DNA of 64,000 nt from an uncultured Acidobacteriota bacterium (lineage in GTDB: Bacteria > Actinomycetota > Acidimicrobiia > Spongiisociales > ZC4RG35). Position 1 is the first letter of the stretch; each line of letters starts with the position of its first letter. Positions 46,597-60,056 of this stretch are shown one piece after another. The notes under the pieces were generated by a model. The model was not told the origin of the DNA. It searched no databases and saw nothing but the letters and a program-made list of their open reading frames with translations. The position numbers and the translations under genes are program-made. The DNA lies in contig CAVQFU010000007.1 of the NCBI GenBank assembly GCA_963711895.1, positions 93,406 to 157,405 on the forward strand, in the 5' to 3' direction.

Positions 46597-46672
46597 TCCG
46601 TCCCCGTGTATCAGAGTCGGTTCGACCGCCTCTCCCCGTCTGCAAGATCACAACGATTTGGGGAGGGAACGG

Positions 46673-46876
46673 ATGAGCTCTTATTTGAACGAGGCGCTGG
46701 CTTTCGAAAAGATGCAGCGCTATCAGGCCGAAGCCGCGGAGTACCGGCGGATGAAGGCCGCACGCTCGGATGAGCCCGGGGCCATGGAGCGGATGATCCA
46801 GGCCATCGGTCGGGGTCTCATGTCGATCGGCGAGTCGTTCAAGGTCGATCGCCGGCCGCGCATCCCCGCAGTCTGA
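46673..46876 (+). CDS. Hypothetical small protein
   Basis: GGGGAGGG 5 nt upstream of ATG; 67 aa, helical composition. Sits between the Vgb-like gene and the TPR-CHAT gene. Confidence 0.4.
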   Translation: MSSYLNEALAFEKMQRYQAEAAEYRRMKAARSDEPGAMERMIQAIGRGLMSIGESFKVDRRPRIPAV

Positions 46877-46976: not shown

Positions 46977-49676
46977 TCAGGCACCGAACACGACGAAGGA
47001 CGATCGGAGGGCTCTCTCTGCGTCATCGTCGGAATCCCCATACACCAAGGCCTTGGCCAGGGCCACGGGAGTGGGGTCGCCGGCGGCCAGTCCACGGTGA
47101 AGGGTGACCATCAGATCGGTGGCGGCCTCGTCGTCAATCGGTACCACGGGGGCGACGAGGCTGGAGACGCCCATGCCGATCAGGGCCGACGAAAGCCCCA
47201 GAAGCTCGTCGCCGGCCACGACTTTGGTCACGGCGGTGTCACATGAGCTGAGGACCATCACCGACGGGGGCGTCTTGATCTGCTCGAAGTCATAGACGGT
47301 GAGCGGGCCGTCGTGCATCTGAAGCGATGAGAACGACGGGTTGTCGTGGCGAAAAGTGCCGTGGGCAGCGAGATGAGCGACATCGGACCCCTCGATGTCC
47401 CTCAGCACCAGATCGGTCGTGGCATTGCGGCCGGTTCGCCGTCGATGTCTCTCGTAGAGCCGGGCGATCCTCGCGACCTCCTGGACTGCCCCGGGCAGAT
47501 CGGGCCCGGCAACGAGCGAGGCCATCGGAGTGCCTTTCAGCGTCTTCATCCTGGAAGACGCAACTGTCCAGCTCTCGAGAGAGGGCACGACGGTGAGGAT
47601 CCTCCCCGGGTCCAGCGCCGGCCACGGCAGCCGATGCAAGGCCGCCGTCGGCACCACAGTGATCTCCTCGCCATCGCTTGTCAGGGGATCCAGGAGCCAT
47701 TGCCGCAGCAGCTGGAGAGAACTGTCGATGCCGACCGCAGCCGCCTCGAGGGATCGGGGCGAGCCGGCTCCATGGGCGAGTCTGGTCAGCGAGAAGAGAA
47801 GCGACGAGACCTCATTGGCTGTGCGATCGGCCTCGACCAATCGCTTCAAGCCGATGGACCCGCGGTGCACCGACACCGCGTGGATGTCTCCTCCGTACTT
47901 GAAGTAGGAGATCAATCGTCGATCACCCAACCGATCGACGATGTCCTCGCGGCTGTTCGGGGTGGTGGCCCGAGCTGGACCGTAACCACGGAGATGACGG
48001 CTCACCGCCTTGATCTGGGCTTCGATCTTCGACTCCTGCACGATCAGAGAGTGGGTCGAGCCTCCGGTCACCGCCACCTCCCGGATCTCGGCGTTGATCC
48101 TCCGCAGCTCCGAGAGGAGACGGGTCAGCTCGGGGTCCGATGGCGGCCGCACCGCGGCCACCTGGCTGCTCTCGGATCGCCATGACTCCACCGCCTTCAA
48201 GACGCGCCATGGCGAGCCTGAGGCGACCCCTTGCTCGATGGCGAGGACCGCGAGATCCAGACCGTGGGTGGCGGCATGAGAGCGCAGGTCTGCAGCTCCC
48301 AGAGTCAGCCGGTAATCCCTGATCGCCTTGAAACCGGCCTCGATCGCCCTGGTCGATCCAATCGCGTTTCCCTCAGCCTGGCGGAGCAGGGCCTCAGCGT
48401 GCCAGGCCTTGGCCCGATCCAGCGAGGTTCCTCTCCTGCGAGCTCCCGAAGCGGCGCCGAGTTGCCGACGAGCCTCATCGATGGCGCCATCGCGCATGGC
48501 GATCCGACCGGCCAGCAGCCGACAATGCTGGGACTCGGAGATGAGGCCGATCCCGGCCAGGTCGTCGGCGAGGTGGGCTGCCTTCGACGACGTTCCTCCA
48601 TTCGATTTCTTGGTCTCGAATCGGGCCCGAAGCGAGGCGTATTCGGCCAGAAGGCGCCATGTATGCCGATCTTGCTCGGTGAATTCCGAGGCCGCGATTG
48701 ATGCCGCTTCGAGGGCCTCCTCCGGGCGCCGCGCGGCCAGCGCCACTTCGGCAGCGAGGAGACGGGTTTCGGAGAGATCCGTTTTGTTGTCGGTTCTCTC
48801 CAATCCGGAGATGGCGGCTCGCACCGCCTCCTCGGCCTCCGTATAGAGACCAGCGGCGAGGAGCATCTCGGCGCGATTGGCCCAGAGCACCTCGACCATT
48901 CCCGGTGGACGACCAAGTGCCTCATAGGCTGCCTCGGCACGATCGAACCAGGCGAGTGCTGCTGGCACATCACCCCTTCTCCCTTCCAGAAAGCCGAGAT
49001 TGTGGGCGCATCCAGCCACGATCAAGTCTTGTCCGAGCCGTTCCCCGATCTGGCGAGCCATCTCAAGGTCGGAAACTCCGAGGTCAAGTTCACCGCGATA
49101 GCCGTGGAGCACGCCGCGATTGGAGAGGAGTCGGGCTTCGGCCAGGTGGTCGCCGCTCCTTCGGAGGCCGGCCAAAGCCGATCGGTAACGAACCAGTGCC
49201 TCATCCAGCCGGCCGAGGCGTTGCAGGATCAGCCCGATCTGCATTTCGTTGCGAGCCAGGTCAGCTCCAGACAGGCCTCCTATTGCTTGTTCCGCTTCGT
49301 CCAGGGCTCCCTGCGTATCACCCACGTACAGGAGGACTAGAGCGAGACTCGAGCGGATCTGACTGACGCGCCGGGCCAAGCCTGAGTCGTCTGCGATGGA
49401 CAACGCTCTCCGCAGGGCCTCTTCCGCATCTTCGAGGTCGTTGAGCTGTCGCGCGGCGAGACCTGCTGCCCACCAAGCGACCGCCGTAGCTTCGGGATCG
49501 AGGTCTTGACGAGTGAGCAGTGAGCGCGCGTCTTCGCGGGCCCGCTTCGGATGGTCCTGAACCGAATCGACCACGCGCAGGGCGGATTCCAGGTTGGGAA
49601 TCGGAGGCGCATCGATCACGCCTTGGAGACTAGGTTTTGCCGGTTGCGCCTTGGGGCGCAATACGTGGGAGGCCAA
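46977..49676 (-). CDS. TPR-repeat CHAT-domain protease (caspase-like); alternative GTG start at about 49619
   Basis: About 600 aa of TPR repeats, then C-terminal CHAT domain with His-Cys dyad (DVAHLAAHG ... VMVLSSCDTA). Confidence 0.8.
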   Translation of the reverse strand: MASHVLRPKAQPAKPSLQGVIDAPPIPNLESALRVVDSVQDHPKRAREDARSLLTRQDLDPEATAVAWWAAGLAARQLNDLEDAEEALRRALSIADDSGLARRVSQIRSSLALVLLYVGDTQGALDEAEQAIGGLSGADLARNEMQIGLILQRLGRLDEALVRYRSALAGLRRSGDHLAEARLLSNRGVLHGYRGELDLGVSDLEMARQIGERLGQDLIVAGCAHNLGFLEGRRGDVPAALAWFDRAEAAYEALGRPPGMVEVLWANRAEMLLAAGLYTEAEEAVRAAISGLERTDNKTDLSETRLLAAEVALAARRPEEALEAASIAASEFTEQDRHTWRLLAEYASLRARFETKKSNGGTSSKAAHLADDLAGIGLISESQHCRLLAGRIAMRDGAIDEARRQLGAASGARRRGTSLDRAKAWHAEALLRQAEGNAIGSTRAIEAGFKAIRDYRLTLGAADLRSHAATHGLDLAVLAIEQGVASGSPWRVLKAVESWRSESSQVAAVRPPSDPELTRLLSELRRINAEIREVAVTGGSTHSLIVQESKIEAQIKAVSRHLRGYGPARATTPNSREDIVDRLGDRRLISYFKYGGDIHAVSVHRGSIGLKRLVEADRTANEVSSLLFSLTRLAHGAGSPRSLEAAAVGIDSSLQLLRQWLLDPLTSDGEEITVVPTAALHRLPWPALDPGRILTVVPSLESWTVASSRMKTLKGTPMASLVAGPDLPGAVQEVARIARLYERHRRRTGRNATTDLVLRDIEGSDVAHLAAHGTFRHDNPSFSSLQMHDGPLTVYDFEQIKTPPSVMVLSSCDTAVTKVVAGDELLGLSSALIGMGVSSLVAPVVPIDDEAATDLMVTLHRGLAAGDPTPVALAKALVYGDSDDDAERALRSSFVVFGA

Positions 49677-49693
49677 GAGAAAGTGGGGCCGCC

Positions 49694-51067
49694 GTGATCC
49701 CGTTCGACGCCGCGGAGTACGCCGAATCCATCAATGCCCGGTTGTCAGATCGGCGTATCCGCATCTCGCCCGGAGGTGGTTTTGCCTTCCGATCGGACCA
49801 AGTCAATGTTCGGGTGACACACGGAGCCGGGCAACCGGACTTCCCTGGCTCTCTCGTCCATGATGGCCCGCCGCTTTTTCCTGGGGGGGATTGGGACTAC
49901 TTCCTATTCCAGGTAGGTGACGACGAAGATCCCATTGACGCCGTTGCATCCTGGAACTCCGATCCCATCAACACTGCCACACCGGCCTTCCTCAACCGTG
50001 TGTTCTTCGGCGAGCCGGTCTACTTCGGCAACCCGGTCTACTTCGGCAACCCGGTCTACTTCGGCAACCCGGTCTACTTCGGCAACCCGGTCTACTTCGG
50101 CAACCCCTTCGACCGAAACAGCGCTCGGCCGGCGCTACTCCCCCCGCAGTGGGGGCCGGTGACAGATTGCAGTGCACTCGGGAGACAGCCACGAGTCCTG
50201 ATCGTCGACACCGGGCTCGCCACCGAGCTGATCGATGAAGAGCTCAGGGAGCCGGAACATCCGAGACTGAAGGACTGCGTCAGGGTCCATAGTGAGTGGA
50301 CGACAGCCGACAATGTCTCTGCACCTACCTTCGATTGGTCGAGAACCGACGAAGACGAGGTGGATTACGACGGGGATGGATTCCTCGACAGGCAGGCTGG
50401 GCATGGCACGTTCATTGCCGGGATAATCCGGAGCATCGCTCCCAACGCGGAGATCTGGATCCGTGGCGGTATCTCCAGCTTTGGCGACGGTGACGACTAC
50501 GACATCTCGGCGGCCCTCGTTGCCGCTAGCGAGTTGGCGAAAACCACGGACGGCATTCCGATCGACGTCGTAAATCTGTCGTTGGGCTGCTTCACCGAGG
50601 ATGACCAGAGCCCTAGCCCTTCGATCCTCGCCGACACGATCGTCCCGATGCAGGCTCAGGGAACCGTGTTCGTGGCCGCTGCCGGGAACGCGGGTTCCTG
50701 CCACAAGTTCTGGCCGGCTGCACTCGACGGTGTGATCGGAGTAGGCGCCACCTACTGCGGAAAGAGAGCATGGTTCTCCAATTTCGGTGAATGGGTCAAA
50801 GCTTGTGCTCCGGGGGTGGATGTCGTGAGCACCTTTCTGTTCCATGACGGTCCGGCATCGAGCATCGCCGGCGTCGATCCGGATCAATACGAAGGCTGGG
50901 CTGTGTGGTCGGGCACGTCGTTTGCAGCGCCGAAGGTCGCAGCCGAAATCGCCAGACGGATGTGCACCGAGGGGGAGGATGCCCTCGCCGCTGCAGCTGC
51001 GGTATGTCCGGATGACCCGGAGCCGCGTCTCGTTGTGGAAGGTCTGGGAATTCACATAGACGTCTGA
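49694..51067 (+). CDS. S8-family subtilisin-like serine peptidase with N-terminal (PVYFGN)x5 repeat region
   Basis: Asp (VLIVDTGL), His (GHGTFIAGIIRS), Ser (GTSFAAPKVAAEIAR) catalytic motifs. Start placed at GTG (VIPFDAAEY) because the ATG at 49637 would overlap the divergent CHAT gene start. Confidence 0.8.
   Translation: MIPFDAAEYAESINARLSDRRIRISPGGGFAFRSDQVNVRVTHGAGQPDFPGSLVHDGPPLFPGGDWDYFLFQVGDDEDPIDAVASWNSDPINTATPAFLNRVFFGEPVYFGNPVYFGNPVYFGNPVYFGNPVYFGNPFDRNSARPALLPPQWGPVTDCSALGRQPRVLIVDTGLATELIDEELREPEHPRLKDCVRVHSEWTTADNVSAPTFDWSRTDEDEVDYDGDGFLDRQAGHGTFIAGIIRSIAPNAEIWIRGGISSFGDGDDYDISAALVAASELAKTTDGIPIDVVNLSLGCFTEDDQSPSPSILADTIVPMQAQGTVFVAAAGNAGSCHKFWPAALDGVIGVGATYCGKRAWFSNFGEWVKACAPGVDVVSTFLFHDGPASSIAGVDPDQYEGWAVWSGTSFAAPKVAAEIARRMCTEGEDALAAAAAVCPDDPEPRLVVEGLGIHIDV
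50015..50104 (+). repeat. Five perfect 18-bp tandem repeats (ccggtctacttcggcaac) inside the S8 peptidase gene, encoding PVYFGN x5
   Basis: Read directly from sequence at 50015-50104; copies are identical at DNA level. Preceded by a degenerate copy (FFGE) and followed by PF. Confidence 0.85.
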
Positions 51068-51093
51068 TCCGGAGGCGTGAAAGATTCCCGTAT

Positions 51094-51732
51094 TTGGCGG
51101 CGGGACGGAGCGTCTTCCTTCATACCATGACGCCCATGGCATCCTTGGCGCGAGCCACCCATGGCGAACTGTTGACGCTGGCTGCCGCCGGTGATCAACC
51201 TGCCTGGAACGAATTGGTCGACCGGTTCAGCCAGATGGTCTGGTCCATCGCCCGCAGTTTCAGACTCGACGACGCCACGGCCAAGGATGTGAGCCAGACG
51301 GTCTGGCTTCGTCTCGTCGAGAACATCCAACGCATCGACGACCCGGAGCGGTTGCCGGGATGGCTCGCCACCACCTGTCGCCGTGAGGCCCTTCGAGTGA
51401 GGGGGATACGCGAGCGCTCGGTTCCGACCGACTTCCAGTACGACATCCCCGACGAATCTCCGTCGCTGGAAGCGATGCTGGTCGAGGACGAGGAGGCCAG
51501 GGAGGTGGTCGCTGCCTTCGCCACCCTCAGCGAAGACTGCCAACAGCTCCTCCGGCTGCTGACGACCGACCCGCCCCTGAGCTACGAAGAGATCTCAGAG
51601 ATCATCGGTCGGCCGATCGGCAGCTTGGGGCCGACCAGATCCAGGTGTCTCGAGCGGCTCAAGGCTGCTTTTTCGGCGCGTATCAGCGGGGCCGGAAACG
51701 ACTCTTTCGACTCAGGAGATGATGCCGAATGA
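51094..51732 (+). CDS. ECF-type sigma-70 family RNA polymerase sigma factor
   Basis: Region 2 (LAAAGDQPAWNELVDRFSQMVWSIARSF...DVSQTVWLRLV) and region 4 HTH (LSYEEISEIIGRPIGSLGPTRSRCLERLK). Confidence 0.8.
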   Translation: MAAGRSVFLHTMTPMASLARATHGELLTLAAAGDQPAWNELVDRFSQMVWSIARSFRLDDATAKDVSQTVWLRLVENIQRIDDPERLPGWLATTCRREALRVRGIRERSVPTDFQYDIPDESPSLEAMLVEDEEAREVVAAFATLSEDCQQLLRLLTTDPPLSYEEISEIIGRPIGSLGPTRSRCLERLKAAFSARISGAGNDSFDSGDDAE

Positions 51733-51920
51733 TGGAGTCGACACCGCAGCACGAAGAGATGTTGGTATCGCTGATCCAGCAAGGACTGGAGGAAGCCGAT
51801 AGACCGCCGGCGGATGTGACCGCTTTCGCCAAGGCGGTTTTTTCGTGGCGTACCATCGACGCTGAATTGGCTTGGGTCTCCTACGACCTTCCGAACGAGG
51901 AGATGAGCCCCGATGAGTGA
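51729..51920 (+). CDS. Small protein, truncated paralog of the downstream gene (possible anti-sigma-like factor)
   Basis: ATGA overlap with sigma factor stop. 63 aa closely similar to the N-terminal 55 aa of 51913..52371 (STPQHEEMLVSLIQQGLEEADRPPADVTAFAKAVFSWRTIDAELAWVSYD vs STSQHEERLLSMLRQGLDESDPAPADVTDFAKVALSWQTIDADLAQLTYD). Confidence 0.45.
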   Translation: MMESTPQHEEMLVSLIQQGLEEADRPPADVTAFAKAVFSWRTIDAELAWVSYDLPNEEMSPDE

Positions 51921-52371
51921 ATCGACCAGCCAGCACGAAGAGAGGCTTCTGTCGATGCTTCGTCAGGGACTCGACGAATCGGACCCGGCGCCGGCCGATG
52001 TGACCGATTTCGCCAAGGTCGCCCTGTCTTGGCAGACCATCGACGCCGACCTGGCCCAGCTCACCTACGACTCGATCGAGGAGTCGAATTCGTCCACGGT
52101 TCGGGGCGTTGCCATTGCCCGCATGCTCGCCTTCGAGGCTGGGGAATGGACGATCGACCTCGAGCACGATCCGGCCACCGGCTACCTGATGGGCCAGATC
52201 GAGCCAGCAGGCGTGATAACCGTCGAACTGCATGTTCTCGACACCGTCCTCGTCGCCGATACGGACGAGCAGGGCCGTTTTTCCTTCGAGGGGATCCAGT
52301 CCGGGCCCTTTGCGCTCGTCATCCGTTTCCAAGGGGACGAAACCGTCAAGACTGAGTGGGTCATCCTCTGA
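51913..52371 (+). CDS. Protein with N-terminal domain shared with the upstream paralog plus C-terminal CarbopepD_reg-like beta-sandwich (possible anti-sigma-like factor)
   Basis: ATGAGTGA overlap with previous ORF. C-terminal VLVADTDEQGRFSFEGIQSGPFALVI resembles the CarbopepD_reg motif. Confidence 0.55.
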   Translation: MSESTSQHEERLLSMLRQGLDESDPAPADVTDFAKVALSWQTIDADLAQLTYDSIEESNSSTVRGVAIARMLAFEAGEWTIDLEHDPATGYLMGQIEPAGVITVELHVLDTVLVADTDEQGRFSFEGIQSGPFALVIRFQGDETVKTEWVIL

Positions 52372-52475
52372 ACCCTGGACGGGTCTCACTTTCGGTATCA
52401 GCGCCGGGGCCATCTCCTCTCCATTGATGAATCGTCGTCAACCGACGACGAGCCGTCAGCGAGGAAAGGCGCGAC

Positions 52476-53370: not shown

Positions 53371-53487
53371 TTCTTCCGCCCTCTTGGTCGGGAGCTAATG
53401 GCCCGCGACCTCCCCCACCTCTCAGGAGAGAGGGGCAGTCGGCCTCCTTGATACCTGGCCCGCGACTGTCCGCTGGTGACGGCGTGT

Positions 53488-58151: not shown

Positions 58152-58295
58152 ATCTCGAACCTCGGCTCGGTCGGGTCACTGTAACCGGGGAAGGCTGAAT
58201 CGTCATTCAGGATTCGACCTCATGCGAAACGACGTCACGTGTCGGCCGACGCCGATACATTCTCCCGTGTCAAAGCTGAATGGAGAGTCAAATAC

Positions 58296-60056
58296 ATGAG
58301 ACGTCTCGTCGTGTCGATCATTGCCGTCCTGGTCGCGGTGTCCCTGGTCCCCATCGCCTCGGCCCAGGAAGAAGGGGACGAGGTGGTTCTGACGGTCGGA
58401 TACGCCGGAGCAATCGACAACCTCAATCCGACTGCCGGTTTTCTGGTAGGCGAATACGAGATCTGGAACCTCCACTACGCGACGTTGACCGACAAGAGTG
58501 CGGAGAATTTCGACACCGTCCGCGGACTTGCCGAGTCCTGGGAGGAGAATGAACCAGGGCTGAGTTACACCTACACGCTCCAGGACGGATTGACCTGGTC
58601 CGACGGTGAGCCGCTGACCGCTGACGACGTGGCCTGGAACATCAACACCTCCGTCGAGCAGGGATGGGCGAACCACATATCGACTACCCAGAACCTGACC
58701 GCTACGGCCATAGACGAGCGGACGGTCGAGATCGTCTCATCCGTGCCCGACCCGAAACTCCCCACTCTGGACGTCTACTTGATGCCCCGGCACATCTGGG
58801 AACCGATCGCCGTGGATGGCGAAGCAGTGGCCACGTACGAGGGTCTCGATGGGGTGGGCAGCGGGCCATTCGTCATCGAGGAATTCGTGGAAGAGCAGTC
58901 GGTCAGCATGGTGGCGAACCCGAGTTACTGGGGATGGAATGGCGAGGAACCTCCGATCGACCGCATCGTGTTCCAATTGTTCACCAACCCCGACGCCATG
59001 GTCGCTGCCTTCCAGAACGGTGAGCTCGATGTAGTGAACGACGTGCCCCCGGGGACGGTGGAGTCGTTGCAAGCAGACGACGCGGTCGAGGTAGTGGTAG
59101 GGGCGCAGGGAGGGTTCTACGAGCTGGCCATCAATGGCGGTGCGGTCGAGGGCCAGCCCCACCCGGCGCTGATGGATATTGAAGTTCGGCGCGCCATCGG
59201 CCACGCCATCGATGAGCAGGCATTCATCGACGATGTCTGGTTTGGCATGGTCGAGCCGATCGAGACGATCAGTCCAAGCGCAGAGGCGTTGTGGATCCCT
59301 GAGATACCTGAGGATCAGCGGTACGACTTCGATCCGGACCTGGCCAACCAGATTCTCGATGATGGTGGATACCTGGACGTCGACGGGGACGGGATCAGGG
59401 AGATGCCGGACGGCTCCAGCCCCATCGTGCTGCGGCATGGTGTTCTCACCACCGACGAGACGGCTCAGCCTTTCGCCGAGCTCTTCACCGGATGGATGGG
59501 CGAGATCGGGATCGGTGTGGAATTGCTGGCTCAGGACAGCGACCAGTTGTTCCAGACCATCATCGACGGCACGTATGACACGTTCTTCTGGGATTGGGTG
59601 CCCTTCGTCGATCCGGACCCATTGCTCTCGTATTTCACCGCGGCCGAGTTGGGCAACTTCAACGACGCCAACTGGACCGACCCCAGATATGACGAGCTCT
59701 ATCTGGAGCAGAAAGAGGAGCTCGATCCCGATCGTCGGGTGGAGATCGTGCACGAGATGGTGACACTCTTCCACGATGCGGCGATCTACTTCCCCGTTTT
59801 GGGCGAGGCCGAGATACAGGCGTATCGCGTCGACAGATTCGAAGGATGGGTTCGCCAGCCCGCCGACACCGGCCCGATCATCTTCAGCAACACCTCGCCC
59901 AGCTATGCCCTATTGACCCCGGTCGGAGGTGAGGCAGGTGCCGAGGGCTCGGGCACCAACTGGCTGCTCTGGGGAGGCATCGCTGCAGGGGTGGTCGTGA
60001 TTGGGGGGATCTTCCTGGCGATGCGAAATCGGTCCACGGCCGACGACCGGGAGTGA
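58296..60056 (+). CDS. ABC transporter substrate-binding protein, family 5 (peptide/nickel), with C-terminal TM anchor
   Basis: GGAGAG RBS before ATG. Signal peptide, SBP_bac_5 core, terminal hydrophobic helix WLLWGGIAAGVVVIGGIFLAM. Confidence 0.8.
   Translation: MRRLVVSIIAVLVAVSLVPIASAQEEGDEVVLTVGYAGAIDNLNPTAGFLVGEYEIWNLHYATLTDKSAENFDTVRGLAESWEENEPGLSYTYTLQDGLTWSDGEPLTADDVAWNINTSVEQGWANHISTTQNLTATAIDERTVEIVSSVPDPKLPTLDVYLMPRHIWEPIAVDGEAVATYEGLDGVGSGPFVIEEFVEEQSVSMVANPSYWGWNGEEPPIDRIVFQLFTNPDAMVAAFQNGELDVVNDVPPGTVESLQADDAVEVVVGAQGGFYELAINGGAVEGQPHPALMDIEVRRAIGHAIDEQAFIDDVWFGMVEPIETISPSAEALWIPEIPEDQRYDFDPDLANQILDDGGYLDVDGDGIREMPDGSSPIVLRHGVLTTDETAQPFAELFTGWMGEIGIGVELLAQDSDQLFQTIIDGTYDTFFWDWVPFVDPDPLLSYFTAAELGNFNDANWTDPRYDELYLEQKEELDPDRRVEIVHEMVTLFHDAAIYFPVLGEAEIQAYRVDRFEGWVRQPADTGPIIFSNTSPSYALLTPVGGEAGAEGSGTNWLLWGGIAAGVVVIGGIFLAMRNRSTADDRE

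Follow-up and report, generated by a model that had tools for sequence, protein, structure and literature searches.

A sigma-linked family of small soluble proteins in ECF54-type loci of Actinomycetota and its truncated tandem paralogue in one clade of Acidimicrobiia

The 64,000-nucleotide (nt) stretch of contig CAVQFU010000007.1 analysed here (assembly GCA_963711895.1, positions 93,406 to 157,405; hereafter, the window) comes from an uncultured bacterium assigned by GTDB to the Acidimicrobiia of the phylum Actinomycetota. It carries a gene for a sigma factor of the extracytoplasmic function (ECF) type that is followed by two small genes encoding paralogous proteins of 63 and 152 amino acids (aa). 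The longer protein belongs to a family of about 150 aa, and we infer, with a probability of roughly one half, that members of this family are the soluble, protease-controlled regulators of the sigma factors encoded next to them and act by binding these. By its gene context, the locus matches the ECF54 group of sigma factors. The initial annotation had considered both small proteins as a possible new family of soluble anti-sigma factors or adapters. A soluble sigma-binding regulator is indeed the best-supported reading of the full-length copy, given its linkage to the sigma gene, whereas neither the family nor its neighbourhood is new, both matching ECF54. The conserved module formed by the sigma factor, its partner, a CHAT protease and an S8 subtilase is therefore described first, being of more interest than the paralogue pair.

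The upstream gene encodes a member of the ECF (group IV) sigma-70 family, as indicated by matches to TIGR02937 (76 bits, cut-off 42.9) and PF04542 (40.8 bits, cut-off 24); the sigma-4 match is weak (13.2 bits versus 24.1). The nearest sequence match in the PDB is an ECF SigE, and close homologues of the protein are 198-201 aa long. A scan of one genome per species, with the subset of the family alignment that contains WRTIDAEL as the query, recovered 241 relatives of the 150-aa family. We examined 80 loci, from Acidimicrobiia, Streptosporangiales, Catenulispora, Pseudonocardia, Frankiales, Acidothermaceae, Jiangellaceae, Egibacteraceae, Solirubrobacteraceae and Thermoleophilia, by six-frame hidden Markov model (HMM) and phmmer mapping. 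For 77 of the 80, the gene directly upstream of the family gene on the same strand encodes an ECF sigma factor. The median gap between the sigma stop codon and the family start codon is 8.5 nt (n = 82 pairs), with 37 pairs overlapping, mostly by 4 nt, and 66 separated by no more than 50 nt, which is the classic arrangement of sigma and anti-sigma genes. Among the 48 loci with full 6-kb flanks, 38 combine the sigma gene with both S8 and CHAT genes, eight with CHAT and two with neither, so that CHAT is present in 46 and S8 was detected in at least 38. The protease genes differ in order and strand from locus to locus, the sigma-partner pair does not, and the counts single out this pair as the invariant core of the module. 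Two loci, L032 and L076, contain two complete modules each (a family gene with S8 and/or CHAT), and L076 also has a second sigma gene, indicating that duplication of the whole module occurs as well.

This neighbourhood could also be explained if the 150-aa protein acted on the protease side, inhibiting the S8 or TPR-CHAT protease, serving it as chaperone or adaptor or being its preferred substrate, the sigma factor itself being the proteolytic target, as the literature has proposed for ECF54. We consider this unlikely, although it has points in its favour: S8 and CHAT genes adjoin the family gene in most loci, the CarboxypepD_reg/Ig-like type of sandwich predicted for its C-terminal part commonly accompanies peptidases, and PCi, a small inhibitor of PCaspase, is encoded beside PCc-sigma in a system in which the sigma factor itself is cleaved (bioRxiv 10.1101/2023.06.23.546230). 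However, the tight and often overlapping linkage is with the sigma gene and not with the protease genes, whose position and strand vary; two full-flank loci keep the sigma factor and partner without proteases and eight lack a detectable S8; and no similarity to known subtilase propeptides or inhibitors was found in Pfam.

In the window, the genes of this core are interlocked. The ATG of the short open reading frame (ORF; 51729-51731) overlaps the TGA stop codon of the sigma gene (51730-51732) as ATGA, and the ATG of the long ORF (51913) lies 5 nt ahead of the stop codon of the short one (51918-51920), in the sequence ATGAGTGA; both overlaps are thus present, which bears out the translational coupling noted initially. 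The short protein is identical to the first 60 residues of the long one at 35 positions without gaps (58%; BLASTP, E = 1e-22), a similarity far above chance, in agreement with the description of the first gene as essentially the N-terminal domain of the second. Likewise, the reported lack of a zinc-binding anti-sigma motif and of a membrane segment holds for both copies: neither contains a cysteine, which rules out HxxxCxxC, and the maximal Kyte-Doolittle values over 19-mers (0.67 and 1.37) are too low for a membrane segment. The 152-aa protein is very acidic, with 28 D/E as opposed to 8 K/R residues.

A word-indexed search retrieved 51 close homologues of the 152-aa protein (57-100% identity, 150-153 aa), all from Acidimicrobiia and all labelled 'hypothetical protein'. 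An exhaustive profile search extended the family to 2,321 cluster representatives at E<=1e-3, 989 of them at E<=1e-10; nearly all are 145-170 aa long and align end to end, and their source names are again 'hypothetical protein' throughout. The family consensus reads …DPVPxxVxxAAxAAxxWRTIDAELAxLxxDS…GVRG…RxLTFE…GQLxP…DxLGRF…GP…TxW, with D53 and G121 invariant and P27, W40, R41, S54, R64 and R70, among others, near-invariant. An AlphaFold2 model of the 152-aa protein, built on a 146-sequence alignment, has a mean predicted local distance difference test (pLDDT) score of 87.3 and replaces an earlier model from 39 sequences, in which the N-terminus was unreliable (pLDDT <50). It predicts two helices (residues 3-23 and 28-42), a strand (46-53, 'AELAxLxxD'), a linker of lower confidence (approximately 58-69) and a confident beta-sandwich (70-147). 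The strongly conserved D53, S54 and R64 lie in or beside the linker, R64 being within it. One unrelated family member, P0076 (207 aa), has two N-terminal hairpin domains in a single frame before the sandwich, an independent event in another lineage which indicates that duplications of the N-terminal domain recur.

The CarbopepD_reg-like domain of the initial annotation has weak support from the sequence, although a beta-sandwich is predicted with confidence for residues 70-147. The Pfam matches of the C-terminal half (PF13715, 22.3 bits, E = 1.3e-4; PF13620, 20.2 bits) stay below the gathering cut-offs of 32.2 and 32.3, with PF13620 reaching E<=0.01 in 18 of 39 family members. Foldseek comparison of two models with the PDB returned generic Ig/FN3 sandwiches, none at E<=1e-3, and searches of PDB sequences with two family profiles gave nothing meaningful. 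For the short copy, neither Pfam nor NCBIfam contained a match. With PADLOC, the sigma factor and both copies remained without a match, and the proteases gave weak BovA and subtilase matches alone. A link had further been drawn to the S1 protease at the start of the window, thought to carry the same domain after a frameshift. A trypsin-like ORF (250-1212, + strand) is indeed continued in another frame by an ORF (987-1478, + strand) with a CarboxypepD_reg-like stretch (PF13620, E = 1.9e-6), consistent with a frameshift, whether real or an assembly error. A protease-associated module shared with the long copy was rejected, given that hhalign aligned the two with a probability of 22.6% over 26 columns centred on a generic TDxxGRF motif; the likeness between the S1 protease and the family is that of a common fold rather than of a specific module.

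A dyad count on the regions upstream of the sigma genes yielded a promoter-like motif, GTATC-N17-CTCT. With a spacer of 16-18 nt, it occurs five times in the window, compared with 0.57 sites expected, and none of 100 shuffles reached five. Four of these sites lie within 7 kb of the locus, each correctly oriented upstream of a gene (Table 1). The fifth (59282-59307, - strand), about 6 kb outside the module and apparently inside an ORF on the + strand (58239-60056), is probably a chance occurrence. Across 150 non-redundant loci, we counted 221 exact sites versus approximately 8 in shuffled sequences, an enrichment of about 26-fold. The motif is found upstream of the family gene in 64 loci, of orf61, a small gene on its 3' side, in 32 of 40, and of the S8 gene in 12, whereas the CHAT gene is never preceded by it. 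An exact copy within 130 nt upstream of the family gene is present in 60 of the 150 loci (40%), compared with 1.5% of control segments, and its usual position is 24 nt ahead of the start codon. Of 137 related loci, 23 have an exact copy ahead of the sigma gene (for instance, L097, L014 and L104), and the motif further precedes homologues of the window gene orf147 (23 sites in 17 loci) and a conserved 67-aa ORF (six loci). On account of its fixed spacing, orientation and position, and of its presence before the sigma gene, the motif is a promising candidate for the promoter that the sigma factor itself recognises. The degenerate copy just upstream of the window sigma gene is a possible autoregulatory promoter, and orf61, orf147 and the 67-aa ORF are probable members of the regulon, of which orf147, with its predicted helix, may be located in the membrane. 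A Shine-Dalgarno site, AGGAG (51714-51718), lies between the motif in the sigma 3' end and the ATG of the short copy. The conserved C-terminal tail of the sigma factor (…ARISGAGNDSFDSGDDAE; 51680-51732) is encoded by these two elements, so that its conservation may reflect constraint on the DNA and not protein function. A second candidate promoter motif from the dyad count, TGGGC-N15-17-TCGT, was discarded, as it codes for the catalytic-serine region of the S8 subtilase (…W.GTSFAAP).

Promoter-like motifs of this kind would also accompany a family protein that is a mere regulon member or effector, with the short copy a non-functional by-product of duplication that is retained because little time has passed or because its open frame aids translational coupling. 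We regard this combination as improbable. The family gene does have its own sigma-type motif, like the other small genes nearby, but the invariant head-to-tail coupling to the sigma gene across the phylum would be unusual for a mere target. The part of this explanation that concerns the short copy is best judged from the history of the duplication.

Nucleotide comparison of 51700-51912 with 51884-52096 revealed similarity that begins approximately 20 nt before each start codon, including the Shine-Dalgarno site, and extends to about codon 55; the duplication units align over about 205 nt when the leader is included. The short gene is thus what a single tandem duplication of 184 nt left as its first, truncated unit. 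As 184 cannot be divided by three, the short frame ends just after the duplicated start region, which accounts for its overlap with the long ORF. When 165 loci were searched with an HMM of the N-terminal domain, tandem domains were confined to 19 loci of the window's clade, the two other cases being pairs of complete modules. The short copy is absent from the nearest outgroups and from some 140 other loci; in the nearest outgroups (L104-L121, L014, L024 and L052), the sigma stop codon overlaps the start of the full-length gene or lies no more than 31 nt from it, leaving no room for a short copy. All loci with a spacer fall into one clade in the tree of the long copies. Hence, the duplication happened once, in a narrow clade of Acidimicrobiia, and the check proposed in the initial annotation, whether homologous loci always contain two copies, spoke largely against this: the pair is limited to this clade, in which one locus has lost the short copy and nine others carry it in a frameshifted or decayed state.

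The orthologues of the short copy are 48-63 aa long. The copy is intact in 16 loci of the clade, with a 6-codon deletion in L003 and L004, frameshifted in L001, L091, L093 and L094, too decayed to be recognised in L006, L098, L099, L103 and L105, and deleted in L102; the last nests beside L098 in the long-copy tree, indicating secondary loss. Some of the frameshifts in long-read assemblies (L001, L005 and L006) may be sequencing errors. Many genes are fragmented in the long-read contigs L001 and L004-L006. The NG86 dN/dS ratio (65 pairs) is 0.35 for the short copy versus 0.19 for the N-terminal domain of the long copy, and five deep pairs give pN/pS values of 0.34-0.63 (Fisher p 8e-6 to 0.046) versus 0.25-0.38. 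Intact short copies are accordingly under purifying selection that is weaker than on the long-copy domain, which would be compatible with a role as a decoy or modulator. The best-kept part is helix 2 (PPADVTAFAxAVFSWRTID), which is nearly invariant, and the following 'DS' motif is lost in some copies. Since several lineages have lost it, the short copy is dispensable as well as weakly constrained.

These observations cut both ways for the notion of a non-functional by-product. It is favoured by the state of the short copy, which is frameshifted, decayed or deleted in about 10 of the 26 loci in the clade, spread over at least four branches, and by an open frame that still bridges the gap in L098, L103 and L105 even though the peptide is unrecognisable there. 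Conversely, pN/pS of the intact copies is significantly below 1 and the helix-2 motif is nearly invariant, and the bridging frame carries little weight, given that, at this G+C content, chance alone would keep some 53 codons open in an estimated 26% of cases. A role at the RNA level, in which a hairpin and U-run inside the short ORF (approximately 51797-51845) would attenuate transcription from the internal promoter before it reaches the long copy, is very improbable. A terminator-like site (51818-51839) followed by TTTTTCG does exist, its hairpin folds at -24.8 kcal/mol (z = -2.47), and most intact short copies retain both the hairpin and the T-run, which the corresponding part of the long copies lacks; yet covariation is essentially lacking (1 of 18 pairs), the coding sequence (…PPADVTAFAKAVFSW) accounts for the conservation, the U-run is partly paired in the predicted structure, and terminator-like sites are not enriched in the region (6 versus 3.7 expected). 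The GTT TTT codons in this hairpin region stand out in a high-G+C genome; the hairpin itself may reflect coding constraint alone. Overall, the short paralogue is of modest significance, as a clean natural case in which a partial tandem duplication produced a gene for one domain only, which is under weak constraint and has repeatedly been lost.

Several observations weigh against a sigma-binding, protease-controlled role of the 150-aa protein. In the better structural model, the strand that follows the helices seems to join the sandwich, so that the protein, as modelled, may be one compact domain and not a free sigma-binding module attached to a sensor. The N-terminal region has two predicted helices as opposed to the four of a class I anti-sigma domain and matches no family, anti-sigma or other, in Pfam or NCBIfam (E<=1 in both) or among the sequences of the PDB; taken together, HxxxCxxC, a four-helix domain and a match to an anti-sigma model, the hallmarks of ZAS and class I anti-sigma factors, are all missing. 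Among 120 listed matches to a concatenated sigma-partner query, there was no natural fusion of the two proteins. Three candidates for such fusions were dismissed, P0259 and P0327 being longer only by N-terminal extensions of the sigma factor and P0178 owing its apparent fusion of a broken sigma-4 region with a family protein to a frameshift artefact. In addition, the motif is exact upstream of the family gene in no more than the 40% of loci given above, an ordinary regulon member would be just as likely to have a sigma-type promoter right upstream, the short copy has decayed or been lost in approximately 10 related loci, and membership of ECF54 follows from gene context and not from the ECF Hub models.

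Both protease genes sit immediately upstream of the sigma gene in the window. The TPR-CHAT protein retains the motifs with the catalytic His (HLAAHG, H771) and Cys (LSSCD, C811), and the subtilase has Asp191, His256 and Ser428 in DTG, HGT and GTS motifs. Neither has a signal peptide, and the N-terminus of the subtilase is not hydrophobic; all four proteins, that is, the sigma factor, the 152-aa partner and both proteases, lack membrane segments. The two protease genes are divergent and their longest ORFs overlap by 40 nt at the 5' ends (49637-49676), which implies that at least one true start lies further in, probably that of the subtilase. The N-terminal region of the subtilase contains a sixfold (F)GNPVY repeat (50009-50113, + strand), which as a perfect hexapeptide reads GEPVYF, four times GNPVYF, and GNPF. 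On the 3' side of the family gene, orf61 is called in each of L001-L006 and was detected in 40 loci, among them outgroups that lack the short copy; neither Pfam nor PADLOC gave a family match for it. The 67-aa ORF lies between a Vgb-lyase-like gene and the end of the TPR-CHAT gene, and a 67-aa gene occupies the same place in L001, L002, L004 and L005.

Table 1. Genes, duplication units and promoter-like motifs of the locus, in window coordinates.
Feature	Position	Strand	Details
Conserved 67-aa ORF (MSSYLNEALAFEKMQRY…)	46673-46876	+	starts with ATG 46673; exact motif copy upstream
TPR-CHAT (caspase-like) protease, 899 aa	46977-49676	-	PF12770 CHAT 109.6 bits; TPR_12 73.3 bits
S8 subtilase, cytoplasmic, 476 aa as longest ORF	49637-51067	+	PF00082 71.5 bits
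ECF sigma factor, ~201 aa from ATG 51127	51127-51732	+	TIGR02937, PF04542; longest ORF from TTG 51094
Short paralogue, 63 aa	51729-51920	+	hairpin and following strand, without linker or beta-sandwich
Full-length family member, 152 aa	51913-52371	+	family and structure searches
orf61, small basic ORF, 61 aa	52476-52661	+	12 K/R; conserved 3' of family gene
orf147, 147 aa	52810-53253	-	one predicted membrane helix (residues 22-40); exact motif copy upstream
Tandem duplication unit 1, 184 nt	51709-51892	+	126/184 identical to unit 2; leader of ~20 nt plus codons 1 to ~55
Tandem duplication unit 2, 184 nt	51893-52076	+	126/184 identical to unit 1; leader of ~20 nt plus codons 1 to ~55
Motif, exact	46608-46633	+	before conserved 67-aa ORF
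Motif GTATT-N17-GTCT, degenerate (2 mismatches)	51090-51115	+	just upstream of sigma start
Motif GTATCA-N16-ACTCT	51680-51705	+	inside sigma 3' end, 24 nt before short-copy ATG
Motif, exact	52395-52420	+	55 nt upstream of orf61
Motif, exact	53429-53454	-	upstream of orf147

Under the mechanism that we favour, the ECF54-type module would consist of an autoregulated ECF sigma factor, a 150-aa cytoplasmic partner, a TPR-CHAT protease and an S8 subtilase. The N-terminal helical hairpin of the partner would bind and hold the sigma factor, and its linker and beta-sandwich would serve as a substrate or sensor for both proteases. Upon sensing of a cytoplasmic signal by the TPR-CHAT protein, the partner would be cleaved or degraded, and the released sigma factor would transcribe from GTATC-N17-CTCT promoters. 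These would drive the sigma operon, the partner gene, which would provide negative feedback, and the small genes orf61, orf147 and the 67-aa ORF (orf67). The short copy, if it binds the sigma factor, could serve as a buffer insensitive to the proteases or imitate the N-terminal fragment left by cleavage. A bolder version is offered tentatively, as one that we are inclined to doubt: the N-terminal hairpin would define a new class of soluble anti-sigma domain, the TPR-CHAT and S8 proteases would form a CRISPR-independent, caspase-like switch that frees an ECF sigma factor across the Actinomycetota, and the 63-aa paralogue would tune the threshold in one Acidimicrobiia clade by mimicking the cleaved fragment.

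The gene neighbourhood of the family has already been catalogued as ECF54, mechanistically unexplained. In the summaries of the work of Huang et al. (2015) and Casas-Pastor et al. (2021) given in PMC8999054 and PMC7826278, ECF54 is an actinobacterial group without a putative anti-sigma factor, with carboxypeptidase, subtilase and CHAT domains encoded nearby and with a proposed regulation by proteolysis; these accounts cite no experimentally studied member. The set of four genes, for the sigma factor, a CarboxypepD_reg-like protein, a subtilase and a CHAT protein, is shared with the loci described here, where it is found in 38 of the 48 with full flanks, and the 'carboxypeptidase' neighbour is evidently the present family, named after the Pfam CarboxypepD_reg domain. 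The same accounts do not single out the CarboxypepD_reg-like protein as a sigma partner, treating the group as one without an anti-sigma factor, and mention neither a short paralogue nor the GTATC-N17-CTCT motif; conversely, the '4Fe-4S protein' that PMC7826278 lists among the neighbours was not seen in the present loci. By these descriptions, ECF54 is one of the few ECF groups with neither an assigned regulator nor a studied member. What our analysis contributes to this picture is a possible anti-sigma role, a model of the structure, a candidate promoter and a small set of putative regulon members, and the combination of a sigma-linked 150-aa protein, the accompanying proteases and a shared promoter-like motif makes the mechanism of ECF54 directly testable.

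Small sigma-binding units without a zinc site are known from NepR and from the class II anti-sigma domain of CnrY, in which two helices of about 45-55 residues in total suffice. CnrY is anchored in the membrane, and NepR acts through partner switching with PhyR. As far as the model goes, the N-terminal hairpin of the 150-aa family appears comparable in size and secondary structure to these modules, to which it shows no detectable sequence similarity.

Proteases also control the release or processing of a sigma factor, with small soluble partners encoded next to the sigma gene, in the CalpL-CalpT-CalpS system and in the SAVED-CHAT/PCaspase system with PCc-sigma and PCi (bioRxiv 10.1101/2023.06.23.546230). 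These systems belong to CRISPR/CBASS loci and are activated by cyclic oligoadenylates via SAVED domains, whereas no such sensor was seen here, and their partner proteins are unrelated in sequence to the 150-aa family.

A further parallel to the proposed mechanism is Craspase, the type III-E CRISPR system of Csx29, Csx30, Csx31 and CASP-sigma, in which Csx30, a soluble protein that inhibits the ECF-like CASP-sigma, is cleaved by the TPR-CHAT protease Csx29 (PMC10028731). The N-terminal part of Csx30 is sufficient for sigma binding and unstable on its own, C-terminal cleavage lifts the inhibition, and the sigma factor autoregulates the locus (PMC10028731). ECF54-type loci resemble this system in that they combine a TPR-CHAT protease, which in the window has both the catalytic His and Cys, with an ECF-like sigma factor and a soluble partner lacking a zinc site, the inhibition by and cleavage of this partner being hypothetical here. 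They differ in several respects. The TPR-CHAT protein stands alone and is paired with an S8 subtilase; neither Cas7-11 nor a CRISPR RNA (crRNA) activator appears in the Pfam context tables of six loci, in which cas genes were not specifically searched for; and the 150-aa partner is much smaller than Csx30, with no similarity to PDB chains, including those of Csx30 and Csx31 if deposited. Should the partner prove to be a protease-cleaved anti-sigma factor, the logic of Craspase would be that of an ancient, widespread and CRISPR-independent signalling system rather than of a CRISPR accessory.

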